64,000 bases of DNA from a virus, in IMG/VR virus record IMGVR_UViG_3300021255_002737; one strand, written 5' to 3'. The notes below the pieces were generated by a model, which did not search any database, was not told the DNA's origin, and saw nothing but the letters and a program-made list of their open reading frames with translations. Positions 3,504 through 42,702 of the stretch are shown piece after piece; position 1 is the stretch's first letter; the number at the start of each line of letters is the position of its first letter. Position numbers and translations under genes: made by a program.

Positions 3504-6500
3504 TTAACTATTACTGATTGTGTATGGGCTGTTATGCTGGTCTGTACACAGGAAAAATGCATTACCAGAAGCAAGAGGTACGTCTGCTGTGGTATTGAAA
3601 GAATAAGAAGATAGGGATATTCTCGAACGAATAGAAGCACTGCTGGCAACATGATGGCCGTAACTATCTTTAGGATTAAGATGTGTCTCTACTTGTAATT
3701 TAATCGTGCCACTTTGGTTAATCTTGACTGTTGTCGTGTACGAAGTGGACTGGTCACCACCCATGCTTGAAAGGTTAGCTAATGTTTGTTGTTTAATAAC
3801 ATTATTATCCTTGAATACAGATAATGACACTGTTAAATTACTGCCCCTTCTAAGGACATTATTCTCATTGTCGGTTGTTGTGCTTCCATAAGCTACAACA
3901 TCTACTTTTATTACTATAGACGTTTCTGTCGCATCTTCTGGTACTTCTATTGTTTTACTCGATGTCTTTGTTCCATAATAATTCTCGCTATCGCGAGAAG
4001 AACTCCAACCGGTAGTCAGATTGCCTTCCCGTAGCTCTACATTGCCATCTACGTTTTCTATATATGCATTTACAGGAACACTACTGCCAGACCCTGCCTT
4101 AAGGACCGTGCGGCAAACCGCTTGGAACCCATTGTTTGTCACATTCTGCGCTCTGCAATCTAAATACAAATTTGTGCTATTATACCCCGGGATAGCTGTC
4201 TGTAGGCTAATTGGTGTAATAATGACATTCGGCGCATTTTTCCACGGTTTTGTAAATTTAATCCATTGTCCATCTTTTACCGTTCCCATGACCATTGCGC
4301 CGACCATTGCAAAAGTATTGCCATTACCGTCGTGAAATTCCATACCATTTGAGCCGTGTACAACATACGAACCATCATTGCCACGTACAGTAAGGCCATT
4401 GGTATCAAGTGTTGCGCCGCCGCCTTTAATCCCCTGATTAGCAGTGAGTTCCATTGTACTAGCACTCAATTTATCAGCAGTAATAGCTCCTGCGGCTATC
4501 ATGCCACGTACAACGACATTATTGTCAAAATGAGTATCGCCAGTGATATGTATCTTTTTGCCGTCGATGAGAATAGATTCTTTGCTAATATTGATTTGAT
4601 TGATAACATCATTTTTAGACACTCTTAGTGCAATATTGTTATCCAATTGAGCGATAGCACTGTAATTTTTCTTTGCTTTGGTCGAATCGGAGAGGTTTGT
4701 GACAACCGATGTAATACTATTGGCATTCTGCGTGATGCGCGACGACAGCCCAGAAATCTGATTGTTAGCATCGGTGTGATAGTTTTGCACAGTAGAACTC
4801 AATGAATTTGCATTTTGTTTGATTTGGGAAATCTGAGTATCTGTAGCACTTTTATTGCTCTGTACTGTAGATGTCAATCCATTGATATCAACCTTGAGCT
4901 GTGAAATAGACTTATACGCGCTCTTAGACGGGTCAGTGTTGTTAAGATTATTCTCGATAGTTACCTTTACGTTGTCAGCCTTTTGCGATACTTGGGAAAT
5001 GGCACTGTCTGAGTTTGTCTTGTTAGTCTGAACAGTAGACTTTATTTCGTTAGCGGTTTGAGATAACTGTGATATAGACTTGTATGCACTCTTAGATGGG
5101 TCGGTGTTGTTAAGGTTCAGTACAACGGATTTAATAGCACTGTCATTTTGCGAAATTAATGATGCGTGCTCTTGATTAACACCATCCTGTGTAGACTTAT
5201 TGGTGGCAATTATTGATTCTAACTTTCCGTCTTTTTTGTTTAGCTCTTGAATTGACTTATATCCATTCGCGTCCGATGGAGACAGGTTTAACTTGTTGTT
5301 GATATTTGCTATATCATTGTTTAAGTCAGATTTAGCCACGGATATATCATTGTTGATATCGGATATATCATTGTTGATATCGGCTATGTCATTGTCTACT
5401 CCATCGAGCCTCGGAATAGCCTGTTGTGCATCTGATACGGCATCTTGGATTTCCTTATCGACTTTCTTGAGCGATATTGCTTCATCTTTAAGCCACTCAG
5501 GATTCATCTCTGGTTTTATCGTATAAGCATATTTTACCGATGTGTATCCTTCGCCCATCATGTCAACGTAAGAAGCCCAGAAATTGTAAATATCAGGTTC
5601 GCCGTTGAATGTATACGATGCATTATTCAAATCGAACGACTTAGAAATGTTATGTCCTTCTACATAGAGACGCATGGATTTGACACGAGCAGGGAACGGA
5701 GCAACCAGAACATTAACACCGCGTAGTGCTTCGGTGAAGTGAATGTAGCTCGGTGCATCTGGCTTTGGATAATTGTATGTTACTTTCGCAGGATAGCTAT
5801 ATTTCTTTAGCGTATTCACACTATATACATAGACTGTTCCTTTGCGTTCCATCAGATTCACATCGATAGAAGTGGACTGTGTTTTACCAAGCAATCCTAC
5901 AGGAGAGCCAACGTTTGTATCCGTGCGAACTTCATAGTACATTACATCAGAATCAGGGACATCCGACCACTTAAACGTAAAAGCGCTCGTGAAATCGTAG
6001 GTGAGATTGTATGGCTGCGAAGGTACAGTCTCTTTTGCCGTCACCTTAATAGTCACTGTTGGTGCAGATGCTTCCGATGAAATCAGACCGTCAGTTGTAC
6101 GGCTTTGCACACGGAACTCATAGACATCGCCAACCTTTGCATTAGGGATAACGATTTTTGTAGGACTATCTCCTGCATATATCCATTCTCTCGATAAGCC
6201 AACAGAGTCAACAACTTCGCCTTGTTTGAATGTCCCAATTTGAGCAGCAGTCATATGATTGGTCTTATAGTAAACCAACCCTGTCTCTACATCGTATCTC
6301 TGGGGAAGCTCATAAGAACAGATAACGTCATAGCCCGTTGTACCATCTTCGTACCGTCTATACTGCGTATATGCTTTGAGGTTCACTGGATTCGACGGAG
6401 TACGCTTCTCGACGGTCTGTGTCGTATCTGTGTAGTTATACCAATGTATGCCACCGCCTAACGCATCGCCATAGATAGTATCGTTGTACTGACGGCCAGT

Positions 6501-9155: not shown

Positions 9156-9568
9156 AACAATCCCTCCTTGCGAAATGCATATTTGAAAAATGGTGTCCAC
9201 CAGGCACGATGATAGATAGTAGAAATGGACTCACCGTATACCGTTGGAACCTGCATGGCTAACAAATCGCCATAGCCAAGGTAGATACCCGTGTGCAAAT
9301 CACCGTCTATCTTGAAGATCACGAAGTCACCAAAGGACAGTTCATCGTAATACACCTGTGTCATATTGAGTAGACAATACTTGTACAATCTACGCCAAAC
9401 AGAAGGTTCGGAAAAATGGTCTTTGTCTACGGGTTTTCCATCATCAATCGGATGACTCCACCCATGATTGCGATAGAATAGACGGCACAGTCCAATGCAA
9501 TCACATTTTGAAAAAGAGGATTCGCCAAAATAATGTGGAATCCCAATGTATTTATTCACGTTTTCCAT
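9152..9568 (-). CDS. NlpC/P60-type tail-associated peptidase (lambda K-like)
   Basis: 138 aa. Catalytic-Cys context KCDCIGLCR and a downstream His (GDLHTGIYLG). Confidence 0.65.
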   Translation of the reverse strand: MENVNKYIGIPHYFGESSFSKCDCIGLCRLFYRNHGWSHPIDDGKPVDKDHFSEPSVWRRLYKYCLLNMTQVYYDELSFGDFVIFKIDGDLHTGIYLGYGDLLAMQVPTVYGESISTIYHRAWWTPFFKYAFRKEGLF

Positions 9569-10260
9569 TAAACAATTTCCACCTCCATTTGACAGCTATA
9601 GCCAACAATGTTTTTCCCTTCGCGATAGTCTGTAATCTCCATAGAATCCGGTAGAATAACAGAGATGAGTTTATGGTCGTACATGACCTTGAGCGGGACA
9701 CGACAATGAGAATTAAAGAGTTGAATCATGGTATCTCGTTCGTCTTTCAGGCCACTCCATGTTGCACTCAGCTTCTCGTGTGGTTTATTGGACTTTGCGC
9801 GTCTCTGTGTAGCTCCCATTTCAAGCACCTGTACATTCCAATCGATGGATCGTGTGAACTCATTGTATGGCGATGGTAAAATATCATCGGTTGATGCGTC
9901 GGGATACGACACGCGCTGGGCATCTACTTCCAGTCCAATATCACAGGTGTACATTTGAATTTCCCCTGCTGCCACCTTCTGCTTCACGGACAATGTATTG
10001 GTAAAATAGCATAAGTCCTTGATTCCATCGTATTCAAAGAAGAATGGATTGAGCTGACCATGATGTTTATTGTAAAAGGCAATGAGCTTATCCATGTCTT
10101 CACGGATGCCTTGCACGGTAAAGCTATAGGTTTTCTTTGCATGGACACGTTTACGACAATAGAGTTTCGTGCCATTCTCTGATTCGTATTCATTGGATGA
10201 CCATGCGAAACCCAATTTCACTTTTCCATAGGGAACGAATGAAAATGTATCAATAGCCAT
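9568..10260 (-). CDS. minor/distal tail protein (lambda L position)
   Basis: 230 aa; first tail-tip gene after the tape measure. Called from position only. Confidence 0.5.
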   Translation of the reverse strand: MAIDTFSFVPYGKVKLGFAWSSNEYESENGTKLYCRKRVHAKKTYSFTVQGIREDMDKLIAFYNKHHGQLNPFFFEYDGIKDLCYFTNTLSVKQKVAAGEIQMYTCDIGLEVDAQRVSYPDASTDDILPSPYNEFTRSIDWNVQVLEMGATQRRAKSNKPHEKLSATWSGLKDERDTMIQLFNSHCRVPLKVMYDHKLISVILPDSMEITDYREGKNIVGYSCQMEVEIV

Positions 10261-10305
10261 TGTCTACTTCCTTTCATTGTATATTCCATGAGATACATCG
10301 GAATC

Positions 10306-10779
10306 CAATGGAGGAACTATAGTTTTAAACATAAGGTTTTTCCATTGTCGTTCGATGGATTCATGGTTATCTGAATAGAGGGTTCAATACTTCTGCTTGT
10401 TTAAATGATTACTTACGTCAGTAAGTATTTGCGATAGCAAATCAAACACTGTATGAACTATTTGTCTTATTAAAACAAAATAAGCTATTGATTTCATGTT
10501 GTGATTCCTATGATTTGTTTCTCATAGTTTATTCAACAATTCTTCAATAGCTTATTTTCAATTCAATAGTTTTTATAAACAGACCTTTAGAAGATTTACT
10601 AACGTAAATCATTTGCTAAAGCAAATAATATTTAATCAAGGAGGAAACCACCCAAAGGTTATTCATTATTCTCATATTAGCTCGTGAATCTCAATGAAGG
10701 AACCAAAGTTTTAACTCTAAGGATTCATCCATTGTCATCCACGAAGTCTGTATGGAGATTCAATGTATACTCTATAGTA
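10306..10779. repeat. hairpin-module cluster A (V1, U1, U2, V2, ACTATAG box)
   Basis: V1 10306-10347; U1 10410-10441; U2 10595-10625; V2 10692-10734; box 10755-10779. Homologous modules occur at 34811-35120. Confidence 0.7.
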
Positions 10780-10788
10780 CCCTCTTTA

Positions 10789-10838
10789 TTTACCCCTCTA
10801 TATATAATGTCTTTTTTGGGGCATATTGTTCGGTCAAA
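10789..10838 (-). promoter_or_regulatory. conserved P motif, copy 1 (divergent)
   Basis: ttacccctctatatataatgtc...ttgttcgg is shared with 32357-32405 and 35437-35485. On the minus strand it reads GAAC-N15-AGAC. Confidence 0.45.
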
Positions 10839-11030
10839 ATCAAAAGTTTAATCAAAGTTTTACTTAGCGTTCTAAAACATGTTCTATTTTTGCCATATTT
10901 AATGCGCCTATATGCCTTTTCTATGTGTTTTCTCAGCATATTTTGTGCAATACCAATGGACATTTATTTCAAGATACCATAGAAATATGCACAGAAGGTT
11001 ATGTCTCCTATGCATATTTGCTATAGTATC

Positions 11031-14000
11031 TTAACGGAAACCGTGTCGTTTTTGGTTATGGAGAATCGATTGGAACGCTCTTGGGTTCCTCTGGATCGCA
11101 TTCATAACATCATCACTGGATGCGTGTGTATTCAGTACAACGACATTACCAGAGCCATCGGAATTACCCATGTTCTTAATGGTATCCGTCTGCTCCTGCA
11201 TGAGCTGTTCCATGCGTGCATTCGGATTCGTCACACGGACTCCTTCGGCTCTCTTTGCTACACGTGGGGAAATCTGTGGAACATATGGTGTTGGATTCAA
11301 CGCACCACCATCGGCAAATGCACCGTAATTCATGGCATCCAGATTGTCCTTACCAATGCGGCTCGTTGCTTCCGCTGTCATGACATATTCGCCATTAGAA
11401 AGAAAAACGAACCTGTCCTTGTCCGCTAGATATGCGAGGATACTATCAGATTTACCAGTGCCAGCACCACGAATCATACCGCCGTTAGCATACGCTCTGC
11501 TCAGTAATCCGCCCATAGCATGACCACCCAGACTAATGGATGGCGTAGAACCTGCCATGAGCATTGCTTCGGTGAGTGCTTGCATCTGCAATGTCTGTGC
11601 CTGAGTTGTCACTGTATTCGTCTGGACAGCCGTTGTATTCATTGTGTCTTTCAGGTTAGAGGTCTGTGTCAACGTATTGGAAACATTGGTGAGTGCCGTT
11701 GCTTTCTGTGTGACATTACTGAGTTGACTAGTTGCTTGTACAGACTTGTTCACGGAGGATGCGAGTTCTCCACCACTGGATTTCATGGGGAAGTAATTGC
11801 CATTCAGTACACCGTTGCTCATATCAAGATAACGATTACCCGTTGCAACCTGTGTCCATCTCCTTGGTGTAGCCGTGAATCTCGACGCATTATTTGCAAG
11901 AAGTCCAACACCTGCATTGACAGCCGCGTTCTTCCCTGCATTACGATTACTGATTGCATCGTCAATCGTTGTTCTTGCATTGAACAGCCAACGGTTGACC
12001 GTCATTCTCATGATCTGTTGCAATGCAATCTTAGCAACGTCATCCCAGAGCTTTTTCCATGACTCTTTGAAGGAACTACCTTGCTTGATAATATCGAAGA
12101 ACATATCATCAATATCACTCTCAATGGTGCTCCAGAGATTCTTTGTGACTTCATCGTCCTTCTCAGCAATCTCACGGATTTTCGCTTCTGTTTCTTCGAC
12201 CTCTTTTTGTATTTTCTGGAAGTTCTCACTGCCATGCTTTGAAAGCTGGTCAATGTTTTCCTTGAGGTCTTTGGCCTTTGCCTTGAGTTCCGCAATCTTA
12301 TCCTTGGCCTCATCCGTGTTGTCGCCCTTGTATTGAGCAAGTCCCTTCTCTACGAGTTCACCCTTCTCGTTGTGCTTACCATTCTGGATATCATCAAGCT
12401 GTTCGTAGTATTCCTCAAGCTGTTCTTGGTCACGCCTACGAATATCCATGAGACTTTCCCTTTGTCTCTTTAGTCTCTCGTTGTAAATATCAATTTGAGA
12501 CTGATAGAGTTCATGGGTATCCATATACTTTTCCTCGTCAGTTTTATTGGAAGTTGTACGGTTATACCATTCCTCAAGGCGTTTCAGACGGAAGTCCTCA
12601 TCCTGTTCAGGAGTCATATAGCCATTGCGAATCTTTTCATTTACACGTAACTCAGCGAGTTTGCTATCGGCGTTGCTTAACTGCTCACGAACCTTAAAGA
12701 GGTTATCAACGAGTTTCTTGAACTCATTATCCTTCTTACTGGTTAAATCAGCGAGCTTTCTTAATTCGTCCTGTGGCATGTCATAAATGCTTTTGCCGTC
12801 GAGTTTATTTTTGATTTCTACGTGCTGATTAAGGTATTCGTCAATATCGTCCGTAAGATTATCATAGGTCTCAACCCATCCCTTACGGTTTTTCTCTACG
12901 GCTTCATAGTATGACTTTTCGCTTGCATCGTTTGCACGAAGTAATTCATAGGTATCGCCATGAATCTTCATCTGATACTCGATGTTTTTCTTCTTCGCTT
13001 CGTAGAGTTTTTGCTGACGGTCTTGGTCATAGATAGTTTCTGCAATTTGATCTCTTGTGAAATCTGCAAGGGTACTCTTGCGACCATCCCAGAAAGACGG
13101 TTTACGAATACTATTAGCATTGCCCTGCATCGGGCCATTGTGATAGCGATTCCATGCTTCGGTGCCTGTACCATCACCAACAAGAGGGCCTGATGCAGAG
13201 TCAACAGTTCTTCCGTCGTTACCCTGACCAAAGGACACATCGTAGTGAGTGCCACTTTCAACCGCGGCAGAAACACCATAATCTCCAAGAATATCTTTAA
13301 GTACTGCCCCATTATTGTCTATGGACAAGTCTGCTTTATACCCCGCATAGTGTCCCCACGGAGAATTTGAGTGTCCCGAGCCACCAGTCAACGATGTAAT
13401 GGCTAATTTTTGACCAGTTGCGGCATAATAACGGTTTGCAATGATATTGATAAGCCTACGGACGTATGGCTGTAGATTCTCAATGTTATCCCAGCTGCCA
13501 CTCATTGTGATATATCGAGAGTCAAGGCCATACATAGACTTATCATCAACATCGTAGCCGCCACTCTGGATACCATTGACATCACCAGAAGCTCCTTGTC
13601 CTTGACCAATGAGTCCTTCTGACATGATACCTCTCATGCTTGCGGCATAGTCATTAGGATTAGCCGTGAAATATCCATTGGCATACATGCCATTAGCAAG
13701 TTCCTCTGGACTAGACGGCTCAGAATCAAAGTCGTTGTCAATTGTATTGGCAAGTTTTGTTGTAAAGTTATCGTCACTACCTTCGTCTACATCTTCGCCA
13801 CCATCCATACCAGCAAAGTTGTGATTCCGTTTTGCAGCATCGCGCTTGCCACGAGCTGACTCATGCATCATGATGAGCCAATACCAGAGAGGATTCTTGA
13901 CCTTCCGTGCTTTACCAGCGGCATCTACGGCGAGTTCCCAAAGATGTGCTTCGTCTGAATCATTGCCAATGTATGCTTGACCATCGGCAGAAACAGAGCC

Positions 14001-15938
14001 ACTATAGCCACCAAGGTCATAGAGTCCACCTGCTTGCTCATTTGGATCACTGAATCTTTGGTCATTCTTATTGTAATCATAGTGATTACGGAGGAACAAT
14101 GCTTTATCGTTTAACCATGTTTTCCAGTCTTGATCCGTAATGCCAGGCGTAAGGTGTCCCAGTGCTTCTGGCACAGAGAGTCCCTGGGCAAGATATGGTG
14201 CCATCTTCTCATAAAACAAACGTCCAGATTCCCATGTATTGCGTCCACCAGTGCCAAATGGGTCAGACACACCATCGAACTCAAGAGTATTAATACCAGT
14301 CAATTTCGTGACAATAGCAGACAATGTAGCGATGTCAAGGCCATTCCTTGTATCAAAGTTGGCCTCAAACTTTTTAGACAACTCTGCAAACATCTGTGAT
14401 GTCGTGTCGCCATACTGCCAATCCTCTTTTGGGTCTTTCTTTGTGCGTTCACCGCCACTACTACCGCGCTTTTGTCTTTCACTAGGTGTACGATTATACA
14501 CGTCGCCACCAGCACCTTCACCGGAACCCCATTTTTGCAAGAAGTCATTAGGGTCATTAACAACAGGGGCACTTGTATTAAGTCCACTGGCAAGATTCGA
14601 TGCTTCCTGTGTGGCTTTATCAGCCGCCGCTATGATTTTATCGTATCCTGCATGGTATGCTTCCATATACCTGTCGCCCTTAACATCCTCTTGTGCATTT
14701 TCTGCATTTTTGCGCATTTCTGCAACTCTTTGTGTTAAATTACGATACTGTACAACCTCTGCGTTTGACATATGGTAGTCTGGGTCATTGTATCTGTCAT
14801 TCATCTCGTCAATTTTGCTTTGCAGTTCATCTGCTTGCTTCGTATAGCTATTAGCCTGTGCTTGGTCGAACTGTTCTTTCATTTGATAAAAGGCAGTATA
14901 TGCATTTGCCCAATCGCCGAGTGCCTTAATTCTATCACTAATACCATTGCAGAACTCATATGTCTCTTGTTTCCAGGTATTGAGGTTATCCTGTGCGTTC
15001 TGCCAGTTATTCAGAGCCTCTTGCTGTTTTGCCGAAATAAATTCAGCCAATGCCCTTTTCTTGTCATCCGTTGCTTTCTTATAGTTGTCCCGCACCTTCT
15101 TTGTAGAATCATCTGTCCAGTTATCCGCTTGCATCTGTTGTACAGCAGACCATCCGACAACCTGTGCCATTTGGTTCTCTGTTTCGATACGATCCTCAAG
15201 GAGTTTCTTCTTCTTCTCGTCGCTGACCGTGGAACTCTCAATCTCTGCCGTGAGCTTCTGGTGAGCAGTAAAGAGTGCATCAAGAAACTCCTCCTGCTGT
15301 GTGTACATTTCAATCTCTTGGCGCTTCACTGCCACGCTATCCTGGATTGCTTCGGTCTGTTTCTGTACGGCATTTGTACTCTCATTGATGTTGCTTGTGA
15401 GTGCTTCAAGACCAAGGTCAAGTGCAAGAGAGACACCGAATGTTGCGGTGGCTTTCAGTAAACTAATACTGTTCTTTAGTGAAATGATAGCGGCTTTCAG
15501 TCCCCCTGCTGCTGTTGTTGCAGCAGCAAAGGCTGTTGACATGTTACTGATTGTCGCTGTTGCACCACTTGCTGTAATCATGTTTAACGATGTACGAACC
15601 ATTCTCATAGCTCTGTTTACAGCGTACATGATAGCAGCTAATTTCACCATGCTACCAAGGAAACTGTATGTGGATGTACTGACCGTAGACAGGTAATGTG
15701 CCAGATTATCTAATTCCGTAACGCATTCCTTGAGCCATTCGGTAAGGCCACTGTTGCCACCTTGTGCAACCATACCAGTCAAGTCGGCCTTGAGTTTATT
15801 AATGCGACGAGACAGGGAATCCATCTGGTTTTTCACCTGGTTATCCGTGAATCCCATGGAATTGACAGCAAGGCCCCAGTTCTTGATGATTTCCTGATAG
15901 TTACTGAACATTGCTGCTGCTTTTGCCCATTGAAACTT
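11031..15938 (-). CDS. tape measure protein, exon 2 (1635 aa)
   Basis: Hydrophobic segments, long coiled coil, glucosaminidase-like block (MMHESARGKRD...NFAGM), LAS/M15-like block (GHSNSPWGHYAGYKADLS), and a TMP C-terminal motif (GTGKSDSILAYL..GEYVMTAE). Confidence 0.85.
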   Translation of the reverse strand, partial: KFQWAKAAAMFSNYQEIIKNWGLAVNSMGFTDNQVKNQMDSLSRRINKLKADLTGMVAQGGNSGLTEWLKECVTELDNLAHYLSTVSTSTYSFLGSMVKLAAIMYAVNRAMRMVRTSLNMITASGATATISNMSTAFAAATTAAGGLKAAIISLKNSISLLKATATFGVSLALDLGLEALTSNINESTNAVQKQTEAIQDSVAVKRQEIEMYTQQEEFLDALFTAHQKLTAEIESSTVSDEKKKKLLEDRIETENQMAQVVGWSAVQQMQADNWTDDSTKKVRDNYKKATDDKKRALAEFISAKQQEALNNWQNAQDNLNTWKQETYEFCNGISDRIKALGDWANAYTAFYQMKEQFDQAQANSYTKQADELQSKIDEMNDRYNDPDYHMSNAEVVQYRNLTQRVAEMRKNAENAQEDVKGDRYMEAYHAGYDKIIAAADKATQEASNLASGLNTSAPVVNDPNDFLQKWGSGEGAGGDVYNRTPSERQKRGSSGGERTKKDPKEDWQYGDTTSQMFAELSKKFEANFDTRNGLDIATLSAIVTKLTGINTLEFDGVSDPFGTGGRNTWESGRLFYEKMAPYLAQGLSVPEALGHLTPGITDQDWKTWLNDKALFLRNHYDYNKNDQRFSDPNEQAGGLYDLGGYSGSVSADGQAYIGNDSDEAHLWELAVDAAGKARKVKNPLWYWLIMMHESARGKRDAAKRNHNFAGMDGGEDVDEGSDDNFTTKLANTIDNDFDSEPSSPEELANGMYANGYFTANPNDYAASMRGIMSEGLIGQGQGASGDVNGIQSGGYDVDDKSMYGLDSRYITMSGSWDNIENLQPYVRRLINIIANRYYAATGQKLAITSLTGGSGHSNSPWGHYAGYKADLSIDNNGAVLKDILGDYGVSAAVESGTHYDVSFGQGNDGRTVDSASGPLVGDGTGTEAWNRYHNGPMQGNANSIRKPSFWDGRKSTLADFTRDQIAETIYDQDRQQKLYEAKKKNIEYQMKIHGDTYELLRANDASEKSYYEAVEKNRKGWVETYDNLTDDIDEYLNQHVEIKNKLDGKSIYDMPQDELRKLADLTSKKDNEFKKLVDNLFKVREQLSNADSKLAELRVNEKIRNGYMTPEQDEDFRLKRLEEWYNRTTSNKTDEEKYMDTHELYQSQIDIYNERLKRQRESLMDIRRRDQEQLEEYYEQLDDIQNGKHNEKGELVEKGLAQYKGDNTDEAKDKIAELKAKAKDLKENIDQLSKHGSENFQKIQKEVEETEAKIREIAEKDDEVTKNLWSTIESDIDDMFFDIIKQGSSFKESWKKLWDDVAKIALQQIMRMTVNRWLFNARTTIDDAISNRNAGKNAAVNAGVGLLANNASRFTATPRRWTQVATGNRYLDMSNGVLNGNYFPMKSSGGELASSVNKSVQATSQLSNVTQKATALTNVSNTLTQTSNLKDTMNTTAVQTNTVTTQAQTLQMQALTEAMLMAGSTPSISLGGHAMGGLLSRAYANGGMIRGAGTGKSDSILAYLADKDRFVFLSNGEYVMTAEATSRIGKDNLDAMNYGAFADGGALNPTPYVPQISPRVAKRAEGVRVTNPNARMEQLMQEQTDTIKNMGNSDGSGNVVVLNTHASSDDVMNAIQRNPRAFQSILHNQKRHGFR

Positions 15939-16200
15939 CAATTTGTTACTCATAAAAAATAAGCCATAGCTTATCATTACGGGTACGGTCATTTCTGCCG
16001 TACTCTCACGTTTTATTTCATGACTATATCGTGAGTTCGGACTATACATTCATCCCTCGACTTTACGTTAGGGAGGCTATTTGTAGTCTCTACGGTTCCC
16101 TATATAGGTTTTACCACGGTCTTGTCCTGTCATTAGGAGTTTAACCGTTATTAAAGCATACTAATAATATATTTCTATATTATGCGGCAAGTTTAGGTCT
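15939..16200 (-). ncRNA. group I self-splicing intron, 262 nt, no ORF
   Basis: P/Q/R/S elements are present in order. P1 has a U.G wobble at the 5' splice site; there is a 6-bp P10, an omega-G, and in-frame exon ligation. Details are in the findings. Confidence 0.8.
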
Positions 16201-29814: not shown

Positions 29815-29889
29815 TGGAGCTACCAGCAGGAATTGCACCCGCGTCCATGGTGTACAAGGCCATTGTTCTGCTTATTGAACTATGGTAGC
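29815..29889 (-). tRNA. tRNA-Thr(UGU)-like, CCA encoded
   Basis: 75 nt. 7-bp acceptor GCTACCA/TGGTAGC; D stem GTTC/GAAC; anticodon loop CTTGTAC; T stem GCGGG/CCTGC. Atypical T loop (TGCAATT) and no GG in the D loop. Confidence 0.55.
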
Positions 29890-30837: not shown

Positions 30838-31613
30838 ATAACACCATACCTTTCAAAGAAACATTCCTTATTCTCGACAACAATCACAAGACGTTAACCT
30901 TGCTTTTGCTATAAAATAACGGCGAGCGACAGGGAAGGAATGGTAAAACCTGTCAATGGGGAGCTACCCCGACTCGCCGGTATAAACAAATAAACATAAA
31001 ACTACACTGGAAAATAAGGTTTCCCTTTATGTCCTCATGTTCTGTGTTATTGTGTTACGAGCAATACAAGTCTGAGCAACGACTAGCAACTTTCGCGCTT
31101 CTTGCACTAGGAGCTAACTCCCCTATGACTCGACAGGACTATGACCTGCATCTTTCATTCATCATTCAGAAATGATATGCTTTTTCTAACCAATATTATG
31201 CAGATTGAACTACTCTACCTATCTACTTCCGTTATAGCTGCGGTTAAACAGCGTCACTGCAATACCTGTTTGATTGGGTTTATACCTATGGTTAGACCAT
31301 GTGAACCCAGACACATGATTTCATAGGCGACCGTATTGGTGCTTGCACAGGCCGGAAGGGACGGACACTACACTCGACATGATTCACACATATCCCAACA
31401 AGATAAGCTCTTTGAACTCTCATCGGCATAATCGCTTACGTCAACTAATGAATGGTACAGGCTATCGTCTATATCATCCATTTCTCTTAACAGGGATATT
31501 CTCAGCGGACTGACAATCCTCTGCACTGAGTTATCTTCCAGTACAGTTTTATGTCTATTTATAATGGTGGGGATGGTTTAATTGGACACATCCCCATAAA
31601 AATAAAATATTAC
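30838..31613. ncRNA. candidate large structured non-coding RNA (776 nt)
   Basis: No credible ORF; many nested GC-rich helices; one gene away from the tRNA cluster. Confidence 0.35.
30881..30909 (-). repeat. 29-nt box upstream of an antirepressor gene (copy a)
   Basis: caatcacaagacgttaaccttgcttttgc matches 32229-32257 at 28 of 29 positions. Confidence 0.7.
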
Positions 31614-32257: not shown

Positions 32258-32304
32258 CGTTAGGTGGTGGGAGAAAGTAACGCCCACCTATGCCCCTCTT
32301 TGGA

Positions 32305-32342
32305 CATAATAAAAGGACACGGCAAGGGGGCAAACCGTGTCC
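32305..32342 (-). terminator. leader terminator just downstream of P motif copy 2
   Basis: Minus strand reads GGACACGG-tttgcccccttg-CCGTGTCC followed by TTTTATTATG. Confidence 0.55.
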
Positions 32343-32356: not shown

Positions 32357-32405
32357 TTACCCCTCTATATATAATGTCGAAAAATGGGGGTAATTGTTCG
32401 GTAAA
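32357..32405 (-). promoter_or_regulatory. conserved P motif, copy 2 (candidate late promoter)
   Basis: Minus strand has GAAC (32399-32396), then N16, then CGAC (32379-32376). An ACCCC/GGGGT inverted repeat flanks the -10 region. Confidence 0.5.
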
Positions 32406-34573: not shown

Positions 34574-34810
34574 GTCTTGTCCTCCTGCAAATAAAAAAGA
34601 CCATAGTATCCCATTTCAGAGACATCCTATGGTCTTACCTTGGTACATCTATAGTATATACATTGTATATACTATGTGTATCAATGGATATTATTGTATT
34701 CTATTGTTAAAACCTATGAAATACATCCATAGTTCTTCTAACGTCATTCAATGATTTGATTGAAAGAGTATAGTCTTATCAATGGACACATGGTTTATAC
34801 AGTGTTCTGA

Positions 34811-35120
34811 TTTGCTATCGCAAATACTTGCTAAAGCAAGTGAATCTATTTAATCAAGGGAAGGTTTGGAACCATCATTGCACTCACATTGCTTACTCAT
34901 TAACCCTATGTCTATCATTGTTATCAACGGAGGAACTATGGTTACTATCTAAGGTTCTATCGTTGGTATCAATGTATTCTATAGACACTCAATGGATACT
35001 CAATGTATTACTATGTACTCTCATTGTCTGTCTGTTTATATTATTTGCGAAGCAAATGATTCACGAAGTGAATCTTCTAAAGGTCTGTTTACAGAGATTC
35101 AATGTATTCTATAGTATCTC
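34811..35120. repeat. hairpin-module cluster B (U1', V, U2', ACTATAG box)
   Basis: U1' 34811-34841; V 34925-34965; U2' 35044-35072; box 35094-35120. Homologous to 10306-10779. Confidence 0.7.
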
Positions 35121-35436
35121 TATGGTCTCCCCTATAACCCCAAAAGGGTATATTTTCCCCCACGACTTCCCTTTCTTTTCTCTTTACCCTGTCACTGCCG
35201 CCGTGAAGGTTCCAATGCATGACTCTGATTTGCACCATGCAGGTAAAGAGGAAATAGCCCGACTTCCTACAGTCAGGCAAGGAATATTCTGGGAGATGTC
35301 AACATCTTCCAAGGGAAAGAAAAGAGAAAAGACAAGGCTCATTCCTGTGTACCTGATACCAGTGTACGGCGGTTCCACCCTGTCCAGATTGAGAGAACAG
35401 TCACGCTGTCAACGAGTGACAATGAGGTCAATAAAA

Positions 35437-35485
35437 TTACCCCTCTATATATAATGTCGAAAAATGGGGGTATTTGTTCGGTAAA
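35437..35485 (-). promoter_or_regulatory. conserved P motif, copy 3
   Basis: Nearly identical to 32357-32405 over about 60 nt. Confidence 0.5.
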
Positions 35486-36100
35486 TCTCAAAAAAAATAC
35501 AAAAAATTTTTTCAAACCTCTACAATGCCGTGTATGCTCATTTAGGTATCACCTGTATCACCATGCTCAAACCGTTGATTTACAAGGCTTTACGGCGATT
35601 CTACGGTGTTATGGCAATGGATTCCCTTGTTTCACCCTCGATAAACCCTTGTGGCGTAAGGGTTTGCGGTGTATTTCACTGAAATCATGGGATTTCCGCA
35701 GAGATGCGTAAAATTTCCACTGAGGTGCGCGGTTTGTGCTGTGACTATGCGGGCGATTTTACTGAGAACGTTTCCCATATTGGTACACGCAAAAGCACCC
35801 ACCATGTCCGCGTCTAGTGTACAATTCAATGTGATTCTCGCGAATCCCTTATATATAGCCATTCTTAACATCATATTACTATATGTTATCACATGTATAT
35901 TCTGATGACAACATAATATGATAACGTATCTCATTGAATGACATTGATATACATTGTAATTCCGATGACTACAACAATGCGCTGCTGTTCGAGTTAATGG
36001 CTGTCCGTTGATAACATATGAATAACCATTCATATATCAGTGGTATAGAACGCGCGTCAATCAGAATGCATTCTTATACATTCAATGTATATCTATACAA

Positions 36101-36235
36101 TCTCATTGCAATCTCATTGCCCTACACTAGATATTCATTGTAATCCAGTGCCTTACATTGGAATTTCATTGCCCTGCACTAGAGTCTTATTGTAAACTAA
36201 TTACTTACATTGGAATTTCATTGGCTGCCATTGAT
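36101..36235. repeat. iteron-like array: about three 52-bp direct repeats, each with three (C/T)ATTG cores
   Basis: Cores start at 36104, 36115, 36136, 36156, 36167, 36188, 36208, 36219 and 36229. Spacings are 11, 21, 20, 11, 21, 20, 11 and 10 bp. Confidence 0.65.
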
Positions 36236-36286
36236 CCATTCCGCTGCATAAATCCATTTAATCAAATTGAATTTAGAAAAACAAAT

Positions 36287-36716: not shown

Positions 36717-36806
36717 TTTAGTTAAAGATAAAGAGAGAGACAAAGAAGTAAGACAAACAAATAATATAATACTAACTCTATTATATCAAATTAGGAGTGA
36801 TTTGTC

Positions 36807-37187
36807 ATGAAGAAAGAGCTGGATCTTTACACAGAATTAAACAACAACCGTCTCTGGCTGACAGAAGGCAAGATCACGAGCCGTGAAGCTCGTGAAGTCG
36901 TTGAAAAAGCCATGTTCTTCATCAGTACTATGCCAGATGACGAGAAAAAAGACGTTCTCGTCGATATGGCTGAAAGCGTCAAGGCGATGCTTGATGTTAC
37001 GTATGTGTTTTGGTGCAAGAATGGTAGTTACTTTGAAGAAGACAGAAAAGCCCTTGTCGCTGAGTGCCGTGCTAGTGATGTTACCTATGAGGTTGGTATG
37101 GATCCATTGGCAGCCGTGCAGGCCGCTTGGAAGAAAAAGGGACTCAAGGATGACCCATTCTTTCCCGTCGATTACTTTGTTGCTTAA
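36807..37187 (+). CDS. hypothetical protein
   Basis: 126 aa; RBS AGGAGTG. Confidence 0.6.
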   Translation: MKKELDLYTELNNNRLWLTEGKITSREAREVVEKAMFFISTMPDDEKKDVLVDMAESVKAMLDVTYVFWCKNGSYFEEDRKALVAECRASDVTYEVGMDPLAAVQAAWKKKGLKDDPFFPVDYFVA

Positions 37188-37238
37188 TTGACAGCTAGAA
37201 TCTACAAGCGCAAAACCTTGTAGATTCCATGGTGCTAA
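37185..37238 (+). repeat. intergenic hairpin element, copy 1
   Basis: TAATTGACAGCTAGAATCTACAAG-loop-CTTGTAGATTCCATGGTGCTAA. Confidence 0.6.
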
Positions 37239-37265
37239 TTAAGTTATCTGAAAGGGGTTTTCAAA

Positions 37266-37724
37266 ATGAAGGGATTTACAGAAGTTACCATTCAAAACCG
37301 TCCGTGTACCATTGTTTACAAGGGCGAGCACTATGCCGTCCGTTGGTTGTCTGGTCGTACCGTTCGCATGTCGAAGGAACGTATTATCAAGAAATTCCAT
37401 CTGCATCACGACGCATTGGACAGGTACGTTGCAGGCGGGTTCAAGAAGCCCCATTGCAATGCCAATGAGGATATCATGCGCGTCAACCGTTCCCTCTGGT
37501 ACGTTGAGAACGTTGCATTCTTTATTACAACGCTTGTCACAATGCTTCCTCAGGTTGCTATTGTCCTTGCCATTGTTATCGGATACATTGACGGCGCGGT
37601 TTTCCGTCCGTATGTCGCGCCAATGGTGTTCGGATCAATGTCGTTGATTCTTGCAAGTGTTATGCTTCCAGAGGTTTTGGCAAAGAAGTTTGATTTTGTG
37701 TTAGGTGTAGAACGTGAAGCGTGA
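37266..37724 (+). CDS. membrane protein
   Basis: 152 aa. Soluble N-terminus, then 2-3 TM helices. Confidence 0.6.
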   Translation: MKGFTEVTIQNRPCTIVYKGEHYAVRWLSGRTVRMSKERIIKKFHLHHDALDRYVAGGFKKPHCNANEDIMRVNRSLWYVENVAFFITTLVTMLPQVAIVLAIVIGYIDGAVFRPYVAPMVFGSMSLILASVMLPEVLAKKFDFVLGVEREA

Positions 37725-37744
37725 ATAGAGAGGAAGCAATTGCG

Positions 37745-38053
37745 ATGAAAAAGTTTACCATCACGAAAACAAAATCCATGATTTGCCTTGATATAGAAGT
37801 CCGCTGTAAGCGAATGTCGACGGCATATCGCCACTTCTACCAGGCAATCGAACAGGCACAGAAAGATGGCGCGTTTGGTTCCTATGACTTAACTAGTGAC
37901 GTTCTGGTTAAGCCAGAGGAATGTGACTGGCGATACAATACGCCAATTCACGACGACATAGAAAACACTGGCTATTGTGTTGGTTTGTATCCAATAAATA
38001 ACGGCTGGTATTTGTGGGCGAACGTAACCTACAAAAGAATGACAATGGATTGA
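37745..38053 (+). CDS. hypothetical protein
   Basis: The ATG at 37745 has RBS GAGAGGAAG. The ORF-track start (37721) is a GTG. Confidence 0.5.
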   Translation: MKKFTITKTKSMICLDIEVRCKRMSTAYRHFYQAIEQAQKDGAFGSYDLTSDVLVKPEECDWRYNTPIHDDIENTGYCVGLYPINNGWYLWANVTYKRMTMD

Positions 38054-38066
38054 AAGGAGTTTCACC

Positions 38067-38333
38067 ATGAAAAAGAACGTAAATGTCCCCATGAACAAGG
38101 TTTTGCCTGTCACTGATGATTTTATTGTGTCCCTTCTCAAGGCAGACACGGTAAACAACCGTATTTTCTACTACATGTCAGAGGAAGGCGGTGAAGGTTA
38201 CAGTACTGACATGTGGCTGGACTACTACAAGCGCTATGCGGACGTAGTGAAGCCAGCAGCCGACGTGTATGGCGGTATCATGTTGCGCCCACTAGGGGAC
38301 AATGGCGTTGAAGCGGTTTTGTATGAGAAGTAA
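38067..38333 (+). CDS. hypothetical protein
   Basis: 88 aa; RBS AAAGGAG. Confidence 0.55.
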   Translation: MKKNVNVPMNKVLPVTDDFIVSLLKADTVNNRIFYYMSEEGGEGYSTDMWLDYYKRYADVVKPAADVYGGIMLRPLGDNGVEAVLYEK

Positions 38334-38348
38334 GGAGCGTGATCCAGT

Positions 38349-38603
38349 ATGAAACGGTTTGTCTATGAGTCGTGCACGGAATGGCACGGCAGCGGCTATA
38401 CAACAACGACGAAAATCTATGCCGTTATCCCTAAAGTGGCACGGGACGCCATTGCAAAGGCAGAGAATTGGCATGGCTGCCATTGGGACGCGCCCGACGT
38501 GATTTTCAGCGAATCCGTAGAGGGCACATTTATGAGTAGAGAAGCGTTTACTATTATCAACGCATTGGGTGCCGTTGAGTATAACGACGATGAAGAAGAA
38601 TAA
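38349..38603 (+). CDS. hypothetical acidic protein
   Basis: 84 aa; RBS AAGGAG. Confidence 0.55.
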   Translation: MKRFVYESCTEWHGSGYTTTTKIYAVIPKVARDAIAKAENWHGCHWDAPDVIFSESVEGTFMSREAFTIINALGAVEYNDDEEE

Positions 38604-38620
38604 GGAAGGAAGTATTCACC

Positions 38621-39292
38621 ATGACAAAGATTTTGTATATCCCCCGCTCTAGTAATAAAAAGACGGGAGATATCAGTCAGACGTATAGCGCGTGCAATAC
38701 GTGTCCCGTATCCTGTCCGTTTAAAGGCCATGGATGTTACGGCGAAAACTTCACGACAAAAATCCATTGGAAAAAGGCGAATTGCACGGAAAAAACATTG
38801 GCAGATTCTATGGCTGAAAAAGGGCATTCGAAGGTTGTTCGCCATAATGTCGCCGGCGACATGTGCAAGCCTGGAACAAGTGAATTGGATACCGCATTGA
38901 TCCATGACTTGATTAAAGCATGGAAAACGATGAAGGTTACGGCGTATACCTATACCCATGCTGACAAAACGTCTCGTAATTTCGCCGTAGTCAAGCACGC
39001 GATTAAAAACGGGTTTATCGTGAATGTTTCTTGCGAATCCCTTGAGCAGGTTGAAGCATGTCATGAGAACAACATTCCGTCTGTTCTCGCCGTCTACGAG
39101 TGGGCAGAAAAAGACAAGGTAACGTGCCGGATCAACGGTATTACCTATCGCCTTTGCCCTGCATGTCATGACAAAAACGTAACTTGCCGTGATTGTGGCA
39201 AGTGTTGGAAAAAAGACAGAAAGGAAGTCATTGTTTTTCCTGCCCATGGTTACGGCAAGAAAAAGACGCGCAGCTTTCTGATGGATTTATAA
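38621..39292 (+). CDS. Cys-rich protein (possibly GP88-like)
   Basis: CNTCPVSCPFKGHGCYGENF near the N-terminus; CPACHDKNVTCRDCGKC near the C-terminus. Confidence 0.35.
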   Translation: MTKILYIPRSSNKKTGDISQTYSACNTCPVSCPFKGHGCYGENFTTKIHWKKANCTEKTLADSMAEKGHSKVVRHNVAGDMCKPGTSELDTALIHDLIKAWKTMKVTAYTYTHADKTSRNFAVVKHAIKNGFIVNVSCESLEQVEACHENNIPSVLAVYEWAEKDKVTCRINGITYRLCPACHDKNVTCRDCGKCWKKDRKEVIVFPAHGYGKKKTRSFLMDL

Positions 39293-39304
39293 GGGGGGGT
39301 TACC

Positions 39305-39769
39305 ATGAAAACGATTGTCAAAAAATACAGTGTAGCACTCGTGAAAGAGTCCGCCCATAAATATGCCGATATTCCTACTCGCCTTGATGATCCTTGGAAA
39401 ATCATTTCGTATGCCGATTCAATTTTGAATTTCGATGGAATGACAAAGGAAAACTTTGTACTCGTTCCCGTCGATACAAAGTTGAAGCCGTTGGGCGTGT
39501 TTGTTCTCACAACGGGAACAATCAACGCTAGTCTCGTTTCGACTAGGGACGTATTCCAGGCGGCGTTGTTATACAATGCGGCAAGCATTTTTGTCCTGCA
39601 CAACCATCCTAGCGGGGATCCATCGCCCTCTAGGCAGGACAAGGGAATTACCAAAAAGCTGATTGATGCAGGAAAGCTGATGGAAATTCCGTTGGTGGAT
39701 CACGTTATTGTCGGTGAGAACAAATACTACTCATTCAAAGTAGACGGAAAGGATGAAATTGAATGGTAA
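39305..39769 (+). CDS. radC: RadC-like JAB/MPN domain protein
   Basis: HNHPSGDPSPSRQD JAMM motif. Confidence 0.8.
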   Translation: MKTIVKKYSVALVKESAHKYADIPTRLDDPWKIISYADSILNFDGMTKENFVLVPVDTKLKPLGVFVLTTGTINASLVSTRDVFQAALLYNAASIFVLHNHPSGDPSPSRQDKGITKKLIDAGKLMEIPLVDHVIVGENKYYSFKVDGKDEIEW

Positions 39770-39777
39770 GGGAAATA

Positions 39778-39936
39778 ATGCTTCTCGTGATCCTGCTGTT
39801 TCTCTCTATGGTGGCGGGATGGTTCTCCCCTCTCGCTCCCTGGTTTGATCTAGGCGGGTTCGTACACTCACATACAGTTTTAGGACTGTACGCGATTACA
39901 CTAGGTGTATACATGTATCATAGAAAGGCGGAATGA
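39778..39936 (+). CDS. small membrane protein (52 aa)
   Basis: Below the ORF cutoff. MLLVILLFLSMVAGWF... with two hydrophobic segments; tightly packed between its neighbours. Confidence 0.4.
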   Translation: MLLVILLFLSMVAGWFSPLAPWFDLGGFVHSHTVLGLYAITLGVYMYHRKAE

Positions 39937-39939
39937 CTT

Positions 39940-40428
39940 ATGTACAAACGTGTTTCTATTCGTGCTGCTGAGATTCGCAAGAAGTTGAAGGGAATTGGCT
40001 ATAATAGCCGCATGGTTAGTGTCCGTTCATCACAATTCTCTGGCGGGGATGACATCGTTATCCGTATGAAGTCCGTAGACGTAGACGAACACAAAGTCAG
40101 AGAGATTGCAAAGGAATATGAAGACATTGCCCGTGATAAATGCAATGGTGAAATTCTAATGGGTTCTAACTCGTTCGTATTCGTTGAATGGGACTGGCAA
40201 TTTATTGAGAAAGCAAAAGAGAAATGGTATAGCCTAGCGAAAACCATCTATAAAAAGCCGTGCATTTCCCTTGATAATTTCCATTGGATCAAGGATAGCT
40301 GTGTTCTGAGTGTATATGACAAGTATGGTATCCGTCATCAGTTTAGGGCAGGAATTGACGGAATTGCAGACGCCCTATTGTATGCCATTGAGATTTACAA
40401 AACAGTCAAGGAGAGTGATTTAAAATGA
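39940..40428 (+). CDS. hypothetical protein
   Basis: 162 aa; overlaps the next gene by ATGA. Confidence 0.55.
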   Translation: MYKRVSIRAAEIRKKLKGIGYNSRMVSVRSSQFSGGDDIVIRMKSVDVDEHKVREIAKEYEDIARDKCNGEILMGSNSFVFVEWDWQFIEKAKEKWYSLAKTIYKKPCISLDNFHWIKDSCVLSVYDKYGIRHQFRAGIDGIADALLYAIEIYKTVKESDLK

Positions 40429-40865
40429 AAACAATCAAACTGTATTCTTACAACGAGCTGAACAGGTCTGCCAAGGCGTCCGCATATAAGACAATGGCAG
40501 CGGATCACAATTTCATGATTAAACAGGAGCTTGCAGGATGTGCAAAAGTCATCTGCAAGGCTTTTAGCGGTATCGAATGGGATGGCACGGCGTTTTATGG
40601 GTTCCAGGATGATAACTTTAGTATGACTAGTGCAATCATCGCCCTTGACGATATGCACAACGTAGAGTTGAAGAACATTATCATGTCTGAGTTACTCATC
40701 GACATGTCATGGAATACCTATGGTTATTCCCCTGCAGAATGGTTTAACAGCGCGTACAAGAAATTCTTCTACAAGTACAAGGCCACTCCTGAGTGCATTG
40801 CAAAGTACTGTAAGGATTGTCATAAATGGTTTTATGTGAATGGTGCTATCTATTATGACGAATAA
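40425..40865 (+). CDS. hypothetical protein
   Basis: 146 aa; C-terminal CKDCHKW. Confidence 0.5.
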   Translation: MKTIKLYSYNELNRSAKASAYKTMAADHNFMIKQELAGCAKVICKAFSGIEWDGTAFYGFQDDNFSMTSAIIALDDMHNVELKNIIMSELLIDMSWNTYGYSPAEWFNSAYKKFFYKYKATPECIAKYCKDCHKWFYVNGAIYYDE

Positions 40866-40915
40866 TTGGCAGCTAGAGTTTACAAGGATAATCCTTGTAG
40901 GCTCTATGGTGTTAA
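40863..40915 (+). repeat. intergenic hairpin element, copy 2
   Basis: TAATTGGCAGCTAGAGTTTACAAGG-loop-CCTTGTAGGCTCTATGGTGTTAA. Confidence 0.6.
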
Positions 40916-40947
40916 CTATCAGTCAACTTATAGGAAGGATGATTAAA

Positions 40948-41250
40948 ATGAAGAGAATGTACTATGCTGAACATTGCAGATGGGGCGTAAATGTGTCCTA
41001 CGAGTCCATGAACGGGAATGCCTTTAGCTTCTATGCATTTGACAGCAAGGCTGCTCGCGATGAATGGGTTGAATCCCATGAGTGGGATGGCTATCCAAAC
41101 AGGACGGCAGGAGAATCCACTAGAAAAGCCGTAGAGCATTGTTGCGGGAAAGACTTTAGTCTCGTGAAAGCCGATGAAGGTGTATGGGTTTGTTGCCGTA
41201 AAGGTTTAGAGTATATCGTAGAAATGGAATTAATTTCTCAGGATAGATAA
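40948..41250 (+). CDS. hypothetical protein
   Basis: Start moved to the ATG at 40948 (RBS GGAAGGATG). Confidence 0.5.
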   Translation: MKRMYYAEHCRWGVNVSYESMNGNAFSFYAFDSKAARDEWVESHEWDGYPNRTAGESTRKAVEHCCGKDFSLVKADEGVWVCCRKGLEYIVEMELISQDR

Positions 41251-41263
41251 GGAGTGAAACAGC

Positions 41264-41686: not shown

Positions 41687-41688
41687 CA

Positions 41689-41964: not shown

Positions 41965-42042
41965 TGGACAGCAATACAAGGGACAAGGTTAATCTCCTTG
42001 TCCTCTGCATGGTATTCATTAGGTTAGAAAGGTAGGTATATC

Positions 42043-42690: not shown

Positions 42691-42702
42691 GGAGGTATAA
42701 CC

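Follow-up and report, generated by a model that had tools for sequence, protein, structure and literature searches.

The window analysed here, the full 64,000-nt stretch of IMG/VR record IMGVR_UViG_3300021255_002737, is a temperate siphovirus-type prophage whose genes between 0.5 and ~36 kb are all encoded on the minus strand. Among the tail genes, a 770-nt gap (10261-11030) lies between the end (11031) of the tape-measure open reading frame (ORF; 11031-16049, minus strand), its upstream neighbour, and the start (10260) of a DUF2460-like distal tail gene (9568-10260, minus strand), its downstream neighbour. The gap is a conserved mosaic non-coding cassette at the tape-measure/distal-tail junction, and its core might, by analogy with known phages, be a DNA element of origin type. 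The initial annotation had described the gap as a 770-bp non-coding insert in the tail operon made of hairpin modules, and this description stands, as the gap has no conserved ORF and folds strongly on both strands.

Composition, folding and conservation of the gap

The longest ORF in the gap is 76 aa. The small gap ORFs are Cys/Phe-rich, vary among homologs in start, stop and presence, and resemble translated A+T-rich DNA; being neither conserved nor protein-like, they were rejected as genes. The G+C content of the gap is 31%, compared with 42% for the window, and the segment 10487-10636 (23% G+C) is the joint most A+T-rich 150 nt of the 64 kb. The minimum free energy of the gap RNA is -211 kcal/mol on the minus strand (z-score -11.2 against shuffles) and -189 kcal/mol on the plus strand (z-score -8.2), and after correction of the folding energy for G+C content three 200-nt segments of the gap rank 2nd, 4th and 8th of 639. 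Folded as DNA, the core (10390-10645) reaches -39.6 and -40.7 kcal/mol on the two strands, with a z-score of -7.0 for each. Rfam gave no match in the gap at the gathering threshold, and at E<=10 it gave only chance matches of microRNA/small nucleolar RNA type, far under their cut-offs. A scan of 9900-11400, including the end of the gap, detected no intrinsic terminator.

The gap is an insertion at the tape-measure/distal-tail junction. In relatives with a 52-53% identical distal tail protein, the tape-measure stop overlaps the next start, and in a Selenomonas ruminantium relative (L029) a 2.5-kb moron block with four small genes occupies the same junction. These genes (L029 950-3500) encode products of 212, 125, 157 and 67 aa, and an intrinsic terminator and a sense TATATATAATGT promoter-like box precede them. 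The empty-site relatives are too diverged to place a precise insertion junction. No inverted repeat joins the two ends of 10261-11030, so the insert does not have the form of a miniature inverted-repeat transposable element (MITE).

All relatives at 79-97% protein identity carry an alignable gap of 764-776 nt (nine distinct sequences), and in L030, a relative at 63% identity, the gap measures 635 nt, is barely alignable and contains the same parts in the same order, with the long-range architecture poorly conserved. Among genomes, Mitsuokella multacida DSM 20544, whose prophage is locus L001, is the only relative at species level; the remaining relatives are from human-gut viral contigs and metagenomes. 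The close relatives found, all of which carry the insert, are Mitsuokella-type gut phages. The insert was not found in other INPHARED or IMG/VR phages. Searches of the INPHARED phages by blastn and tblastn gave no match, the pattern of the U2 hairpins described below matched only this locus among viral contigs, and the extra matches of a central-palindrome pattern in viral contigs were rejected as chance.

The hairpin array is 81-92% identical among close relatives, and the flanking genes are 87-95% identical. In an alignment of ten closely related sequences, 97.5% of the alignment cells are paired in the consensus structure. Changes on both sides occur in 12 pairs, compared with 5.1 +/- 1.5 in shuffles (0 of 500 shuffles reach 12) and with 1-4 pairs when the partners are slid by 1-3 columns. 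Because the sequences are closely related, this covariation gives modest support only. The initial annotation had named a lack of conservation or covariation in related phages as a result that would speak against its proposal; both are present. The difference between sense and antisense folding energy spans -20 to +3.6 kcal/mol among the homologs.

Hairpin doublets and the A+T-rich core

The most distinctive parts of the gap are two units of paired hairpins. A scan of the 64 kb for two adjacent perfect hairpins (stem of at least 6, loop of 3-5, spacing of 0-2) found four sites only, compared with ~0.1 in shuffles. Two of them are the U units proposed initially, recovered here at 10411-10442 and 10593-10626, and the other two lie at 34810-34841 and 35043-35074. 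The U2 ('alpha') module (10576-10641, minus strand) consists of the hairpins at 10593-10626 with their conserved flanks, and the U1 ('beta') module (10394-10460, plus strand) consists of those at 10411-10442 with theirs. The complementary arms that had been said to flank the units pair in the predicted folds. An inverted U2 copy with its flank is found at 35040-35091, and a U1 paralog at 34797-34859. Inside the 23% G+C core lies a central palindrome, C (10477-10558), with perfect 15-nt arms around an inner hairpin; it shows compensatory changes, from CG to UA at alignment columns 292/311 and among UG, GC and UA at columns 265/338.

We compared 25 distinct doublets from orthologs and paralogs. 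Their stems (TTTGC, TTTAC, CTTAC, CTTGC, TTCAC and GTTTGC) are all perfectly complementary without G.U pairs, and the U2 stems are invariant Watson-Crick pairs in the orthologs (helices 6 and 7). The loops are 3 or 4 nt long (GATA, GTAA, GTTA, GTCA, GCTA, GACA and GAA were seen), and by manual count 46 of the 50 are of the c-GN(N)A-g form; for the remaining perfect hairpins of the window the count is 2 of 61. Most of the U loops are not of the RNA GNRA type. The TTTGC-type hairpins spell GCGNNAGC or GCGNAGC, with GCGATAGC, GCGTAAGC and GCGAAGC as instances. DNA mini-hairpins of the type GCGNNAGC/GCGNAGC are found at the G4 origin, at RSF1010 ssiA and in the N4 hairpin promoters (PMC13037366).

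The two loops within a doublet invariably share a strand, and the doublets of one region occupy opposite strands. In every gap homolog the loop polarity is sense for U2 and antisense for U1; L030 has one doublet flipped. The doublets at 35 kb are again on opposite strands, in an arrangement reversed relative to the gap. The two U units had been thought to point in opposite directions. The stems do not bear this out, since on one strand both units show a TTAC-type stem and then a TTGC-type stem; the loops do, those of U2 being G..A on the minus strand and those of U1 on the plus strand. In relatives both U2 loops are G..A on the minus strand, and in the window only one is (GTTA), the other loop being TTTA. 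The U1 loops vary among orthologs (GTCA/GAA/GACA and GATA/GTAA) but keep G..A on the plus strand. A process at the DNA level is the simplest explanation of a loop constraint that acts on both strands. The gap thus has hairpin signals on opposite strands beside an A+T-rich region (U1 and U2 with the 23% G+C core), which is the arrangement of single-strand initiation (ssi) signals.

The P box

Upstream of the V2 hairpin and the core in the direction of transcription, the P box carries the core GACATTATATATAGAGGGGTAAAT (10811-10788, minus strand). It lies in the most conserved block of the gap, 135 nt long (10745-10879, minus strand), which is 95-98% identical among relatives, compared with 87-95% for the flanking genes; the sequence upstream of the P box is A/T-rich, and a box TACTATAGAGTATACATTGAATCTC lies downstream. 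The P core GACATTATATATAGAGGGGTAAT occurs three times in the window (minus strand, 10811, 32378 and 35458), and also in other phages; on the plus strand the 22-mer motif starts at 10790, 32357 and 35437, and the core is read on the minus strand. One paralog (35437-35458, minus strand) heads a second non-coding region and is followed by ~860 nt of non-coding DNA with an intrinsic terminator at the end, 12 nt ahead of the ribosome-binding site (RBS) of PhoH. After the other (32357-32378, minus strand) come an intrinsic terminator (32303-32342), the antirepressor gene and ROOL. In the unrelated phage L010 (IMGVR_UViG_2834101283_000005), P lies 50 nt after the tape-measure gene and is directly followed by an intrinsic terminator (3699-3722) and the tail-tip genes. 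A second P copy of IMGVR_UViG_2834101283_000005 (L004) is located 95 nt upstream of a ROOL RNA (889-1467) and three tRNAs. In each of the five contexts the P box points the same way as the flanking genes, and intrinsic terminators follow it at 32.3 kb and in L010. The terminators at 32303-32342, 34596-34636 and L010 3699-3722 are strong and stand in gene-sense orientation directly before RBSs of the long late unit; read-through of terminators inside this unit therefore depends on antitermination or on promoters that restart transcription.

The P region has next to no structure (-2.5 kcal/mol), and an ACCCC/GGGGT hairpin considered at the P box was rejected because it is not kept in L001, L004, L010 and L030. 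No sigma-70-type -35/-10 pair at 16-18 bp was found on the sense strand at P in the three copies scanned; a perfect TATAAT is present on the plus (antisense) strand without a -35 element. Inspected by eye, none of the sigma-70, extracytoplasmic function (ECF), sigma-54 and T7-like readings of P fits every copy, and these readings were dropped. The window contains no single-subunit RNA polymerase gene. Antitermination RNA of the lambda nut boxA/boxB or HK022 put type was not found at P, as P is unstructured and the U doublets, although they resemble a pair of adjacent stem-loops, flip in orientation. A metagenome scan with a P 18-mer was set aside, since it also matched unrelated contexts in which the same words form a -35/spacer or an RBS. 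The 183-aa product of 45775-46326 (minus strand) matches ECF-type sigma region 4 and a 'positive control sigma-like factor' model (E 3e-5 and 8e-5, both below cut-off), and a phage-specific promoter is therefore possible; judged from these profile matches, this sigma-70/ECF-like 'positive control' factor is a candidate late-gene activator. P fits a promoter or an antitermination signal. We conclude that P is an orientation-locked transcription signal, whether promoter, antitermination or processing site. If P is such a signal, a sense 5' end would be expected at or just after the junction between TATATATAG and the following AGGGG.

V hairpins and the edges of the cassette

The V hairpins described initially, V1 (10306-10347) and V2 (10692-10734), are direct repeats with 79% identity over 34 nt, and each is self-complementary. 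The V2 core hairpin is enclosed in two outer helices, forming a domain at 10664-10765 (minus strand; alifold helices, columns 47-149). As had been predicted, V2 pairs better on the minus strand, with -28.8 kcal/mol for the sense RNA of the domain versus -21.5 kcal/mol for the antisense RNA, and the sense fold is the better one in 8 of 9 homologs. For the extended V1 hairpin (10285-10365) the antisense fold is better in 9 of 10 homologs (-33.5 versus -24.4 kcal/mol for sense). In sense order, the V2 domain, U2, palindrome C, U1 and extended V1 make up a hairpin array of 520 nt, which reaches as far as the RBS of the next gene.

At the downstream edge, the 3' arm of V1, GTTCCTCCATTG on the minus strand, is an anti-Shine-Dalgarno (anti-SD) sequence. 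The SD region of the next tail gene, CAATGAAAGGAAG, lies with the ATG at 10258-10279 (minus strand; SD at 10267-10274). The V1 3' arm (GUUCCUCCAUUG) can pair either with its own 5' arm or with the SD region (CAAUGAAAGGAAG), and a second C/U-rich segment, CCCUCU, is also able to reach the SD. Helix 16, the 12-bp SD/anti-SD helix, is 99% paired, and the changes within it are all one-sided; the mean unpaired probability of the SD ranges from 0.21 to 0.81 per homolog. In the modelled folds, the A.C mismatches of sense V1 may reflect a 3' arm held by SD pairing.

At the upstream edge, the T hairpin (10971-11032, minus strand) is a stem of ~30 bp that begins at the tape-measure stop codon. Because several of its pairs are G.U, it is 14.5 kcal/mol more stable as sense RNA (-36.6 kcal/mol, z-score -10.7) than as antisense RNA (-22.1 kcal/mol). 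The T hairpin is kept in 7 homologs, and a different hairpin is present at the same place in L008 and in the unrelated phage L010. The stem is followed by GAAAUAAAU and has no U run, and it is therefore not an intrinsic terminator. Its ~30 paired positions on the sense strand match an RNase III-type site, for which we looked for a double-stranded RNA stem of at least ~20 bp on the transcribed strand.

Between the T hairpin and the conserved block lies an 85-nt allelic segment (10880-10964). It is 95% identical to that of the distant M. multacida prophage, whose flanks are only 78-80% identical, and close relatives carry an unrelated segment instead. The segment is swappable, and there are therefore recombination breakpoints inside the gap, indicating recent recombination.

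A second non-coding region and the genome context

The modules of the gap recur in a non-coding region of ~1.7 kb (34574-36286) that contains a P box, a G+C-rich segment and U/V modules. The paralogous module array (34797-35110) carries U doublets at 34810-34841 and 35043-35074, a V repeat at 34927-34966 and CAATGTAT boxes, and it ends in the intrinsic terminator 34596-34636. The gap and the 34.6-35.5 kb region thus share P, U, V and CAATGTAT modules and have a similar organisation. The region 34574-36286 is a candidate primary origin or long non-coding RNA unit. The 330-nt G+C-rich segment after the 35-kb P is not unusually structured (z-score -1.8). The product of orf133 (35632-36033), considered as a Q-like antiterminator, has no matches and a non-protein-like sequence, and it was rejected. 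A 21-mer is repeated at 36152-36172 and 36204-36224, just after the cro-like gene. This 21-mer of 36152-36224 is absent from the gap, and a search of the gap for iterons found only V1/V2 (79%) and weak 21-nt repeats. The most over-represented 5-mer of the window is CAATG/CATTG (466 on both strands versus 137 expected from composition), and CNTTG words are enriched across the window (4/4). CAATG was rejected as a specific binding site because the word is enriched window-wide and the gap is not enriched.

The minus-strand genes from ~36 kb include PhoH, a PAPS-reductase-like gene, an antirepressor, the ROOL RNA, a tRNA-Thr, the terminase, head genes and tail genes; NlpC/P60, gpL-like and gpJ-like genes are downstream of the DUF2460-like gene. 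The ROOL RNA (30997-31554, minus strand; full-length, 214.8 bits) and the tRNA-Thr (29815-29889, minus strand) lie in the late transcription unit. A 130-nt spacer (16050-16179) divides the tape-measure gene into two ORFs (727 and 1672 aa) that match successive stretches of the same tape-measure profile; in distant relatives the gene is undivided, with 2346-2681 aa in one ORF. Possible explanations are that the spacer is another small insertion or an intervening sequence, or that two proteins are genuinely made. A plus-strand gene island (36800-44930) with positive GC skew carries its own integrase-family gene (43253-44047) and Bro-N and RadC-like genes; located between the early/replication block and the late block, it may be a separate integrated element. 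From sequence, the phage is predicted to encode a DnaG/DnaB-type primase-helicase (55385-57412) and a T7-type single-stranded DNA-binding protein.

Discussion

We tentatively favour the reading that the core of the gap is an origin-like or single-strand-initiation DNA element of the SPP1 oriR type, with RNA punctuation at its edges. In this proposal, the P box would be a transcription signal facing an A+T-rich, palindrome-rich unwinding region. When the core becomes single-stranded, the U doublets would fold into extra-stable c-GN(N)A-g mini-hairpins, one doublet per strand, which might serve as single-strand initiation (priming) or protein-loading signals for the phage primase-helicase. The V repeats and CAATGTAT boxes, common to the gap and the 34.6-36.3 kb region, would be repeated recognition elements. 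The edges would fit the cassette to the operon: the 30-bp sense-RNA hairpin would close or process the tape-measure message, and the anti-SD of the last hairpin would adjoin the RBS of the next gene, which must start translation alone because the coupling to the tape-measure stop has been lost.

In SPP1, oriR and morons lie on a segment 'bracketed between transcriptional signals' that breaks up the late operon; oriR resembles oriL in its organisation (repeats and an AT-rich unwinding element) and may stall forks (PMC6316719). Like oriR, the gap is an A+T-rich, repeat-bearing non-coding island, bounded by transcription signals, that breaks the structural gene order beside or in place of morons, with a second such region elsewhere. 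There is no sequence similarity between the two, no gp38-type initiator or its direct repeats were identified for the gap, and oriR lies between head genes whereas the gap follows the tape-measure; an origin role of the gap is predicted by analogy. The T4 origins oriF and ori(34) and the primary and secondary origins of T7 also consist of a conserved transcription signal with a very A+T-rich region directly after it; each genome has several copies, and a tail-fibre gene contains one of the T4 origins. P is a candidate promoter before an A+T-rich core, and R-loop priming would be suggested only by analogy with these origins. With G4 oric, RSF1010 ssiA and ssiB and the N4 promoters, the doublets share the C-G closing pair, the GNA/GNNA loops, the exact GCGNNAGC/GCGNAGC words and one signal per strand; they differ in being doublets with A/T-rich stems of 6-7 bp in a temperate phage with double-stranded DNA, and an N4-type RNA polymerase gene is absent from the window. 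A bolder reading, in our view quite unlikely, is that these Mitsuokella phages have a class of cis element not described before, in which mini-hairpin doublets, one on each strand and fed by P, act as priming signals or hairpin promoters on single-stranded DNA of a temperate phage with double-stranded DNA, or else that P defines a regulon of large phage non-coding RNAs, with ROOL among them and the gap and the 35-kb unit as new members.

Several observations weigh against an origin-type core. The gap contains no clear iterons, and GC skew, rejected as an origin marker, tracks gene direction only and does not switch at the gap. The U geometry is variable, with doublets facing each other in the gap, back-to-back at 35 kb and one flipped in L030, which is unexpected if geometry mattered. 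Template-switch mutation can make and keep perfect palindromes with stable loops without any function. The sense-specific G.U pairs of the T hairpin and V2 are a clear mark of RNA-level shaping in part of the insert. Finally, the element is restricted to a narrow clade, and more distant relatives lack it.

The RNA-level features are what a structured RNA leader or punctuation would explain, with the T hairpin as an RNase III site or 3' stabiliser, P as an internal late promoter or antitermination signal, and the 520-nt hairpin array as a 5' leader controlling how stable the message of the distal tail genes is and, by way of a V1/anti-SD switch, how well it is translated. The region is necessarily transcribed with the operon, the T hairpin and V2 (in 8/9 homologs) are better as sense RNA, P is co-oriented with the genes in all five contexts, including L010 and L004, terminators follow P at 32.3 kb and in L010, and 45775-46326 codes for a sigma-like factor. 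The anti-SD/SD helix is conserved, its changes being one-sided only, and covariation exceeds that of shuffles. This reading is possible, and we hold it more loosely than that of an origin-type core, as the U loops are constrained on opposite strands, flip between orthologs and paralogs and are not of the RNA GNRA type; V1 is consistently weaker on the sense strand, P is unstructured and has no sense-strand sigma-70 promoter, and the sense-antisense energy difference varies widely. Support for an RNA-level role, of the kind suggested by the initial annotation, is limited to the outer parts of the gap, and the U units are unlike elements that act in one transcript; the analysis gave no sign of the discrete small RNAs that had also been proposed. 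T resembles the intercistronic RNase III sites of the T7 type in being a long sense-specific stem directly after a gene of a long late transcript; judged from the stem fold, T is only a candidate for cleavage, and it shows no internal-loop signature that could be tested. The T4 PeSL, the stoperators of cluster A mycobacteriophages and lambda nut or PR'-tR' are repeated intergenic regulatory cassettes; like them, P is asymmetric, repeated between genes in one orientation relative to transcription, at module boundaries and, in two contexts, before terminators, and unlike them it has three copies only and no promoter consensus, boxA/boxB or put fold. The orientation problem of the U units applies equally to a stand-alone large structured non-coding RNA that starts from P and acts in trans like ROOL, as a paralog of the ~860-nt P-to-terminator unit. 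Such an RNA would agree with the non-coding stretch and intrinsic terminator after the 35-kb P, with P before ROOL in L004 and with the very strong folding z-scores; we regard it as very unlikely, given that there is no terminator at the gap end and no Rfam match, that the architecture is poorly conserved in L030 and that the pairs mostly form local hairpins.

Selfish or neutral palindromic repeats, similar to repetitive extragenic palindromes (REP) and bacterial interspersed mosaic elements (BIME) or to MITEs, that built up at a hot spot permissive for morons, with P as a conserved linker for recombination between phages, would account for short palindromes with conserved flanks that occur in both orientations and in shuffled order in the two non-coding regions. 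The junction is a hot spot for insertion, the insert is a mosaic with an 85-nt allelic segment shared with a distant relative, and the modules evolve slightly faster (81-88% identity) than the flanking genes (87-95%). The likeness to REP/BIME also includes their intergenic, clustered and mosaic distribution, and REP can stabilise upstream mRNA. We find this explanation somewhat unlikely: the phage carries only four U copies compared with hundreds per chromosome, there are no terminal inverted repeats and no GTAG head, no Y1/REP-associated tyrosine transposase (RAYT) was detected among the annotated ORFs scanned, the repeats are phage-borne, and the architecture persists to 63% protein identity in a size-limited genome, with loops constrained through substitutions. 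There is also a slim chance that the plus-strand TATAAT of P, a perfect -10 in all P copies, drives a ~220-nt antisense small RNA that ends at the T hairpin and covers the 3' end of the tape-measure gene; in its favour, a TATATATAATGT box is a sense promoter-like element in L029. Against it, the TATAAT of P has no -35 element, P would be antisense to the genes in five contexts, the transcribed part is the non-conserved allelic segment, and T is much weaker on the plus strand and has no adjacent T run. Scarcely more can be said for the U and V palindromes as double-stranded DNA sites of a dimeric phage regulator, a role close to the paired protein-binding palindromes of the initial annotation. 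The paired 16-bp palindromes and the several helix-turn-helix, Bro-N and antirepressor proteins of the window are in line with it; both half-sites always change together, the spacer varies from 3 to 4 bp, and the CAATG enrichment is genome-wide. Symmetric compensatory changes in the stems together with loops that vary in length (3 or 4 nt) argue for base pairing and against duplex recognition by a dimeric protein.

The cassette has no sequence or covariance-model tie to described families; by its architecture it is a variant of origin-like islands, mini-hairpin signals and repeated cassettes. To our knowledge, no elements of these kinds have been described in gut phages of Negativicutes. Annotation pipelines would see an empty region here or invent small ORFs, and for tail-tip module swaps at the junction the spacer is not inert. 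The location of P just upstream of ROOL and tRNAs in a related phage gives a handle on their expression, and the role of P may be to drive or process ROOL expression. Should the core be an origin-type or priming element, gut Negativicutes phages would, after SPP1, provide a second example of a structural operon with an origin copy inside it. DNA mini-hairpins would then have a natural use in a temperate phage with double-stranded DNA, and the element would bear on how such phages change their mode of replication and on the reason why insertions concentrate at the tape-measure/tail-tip junction.

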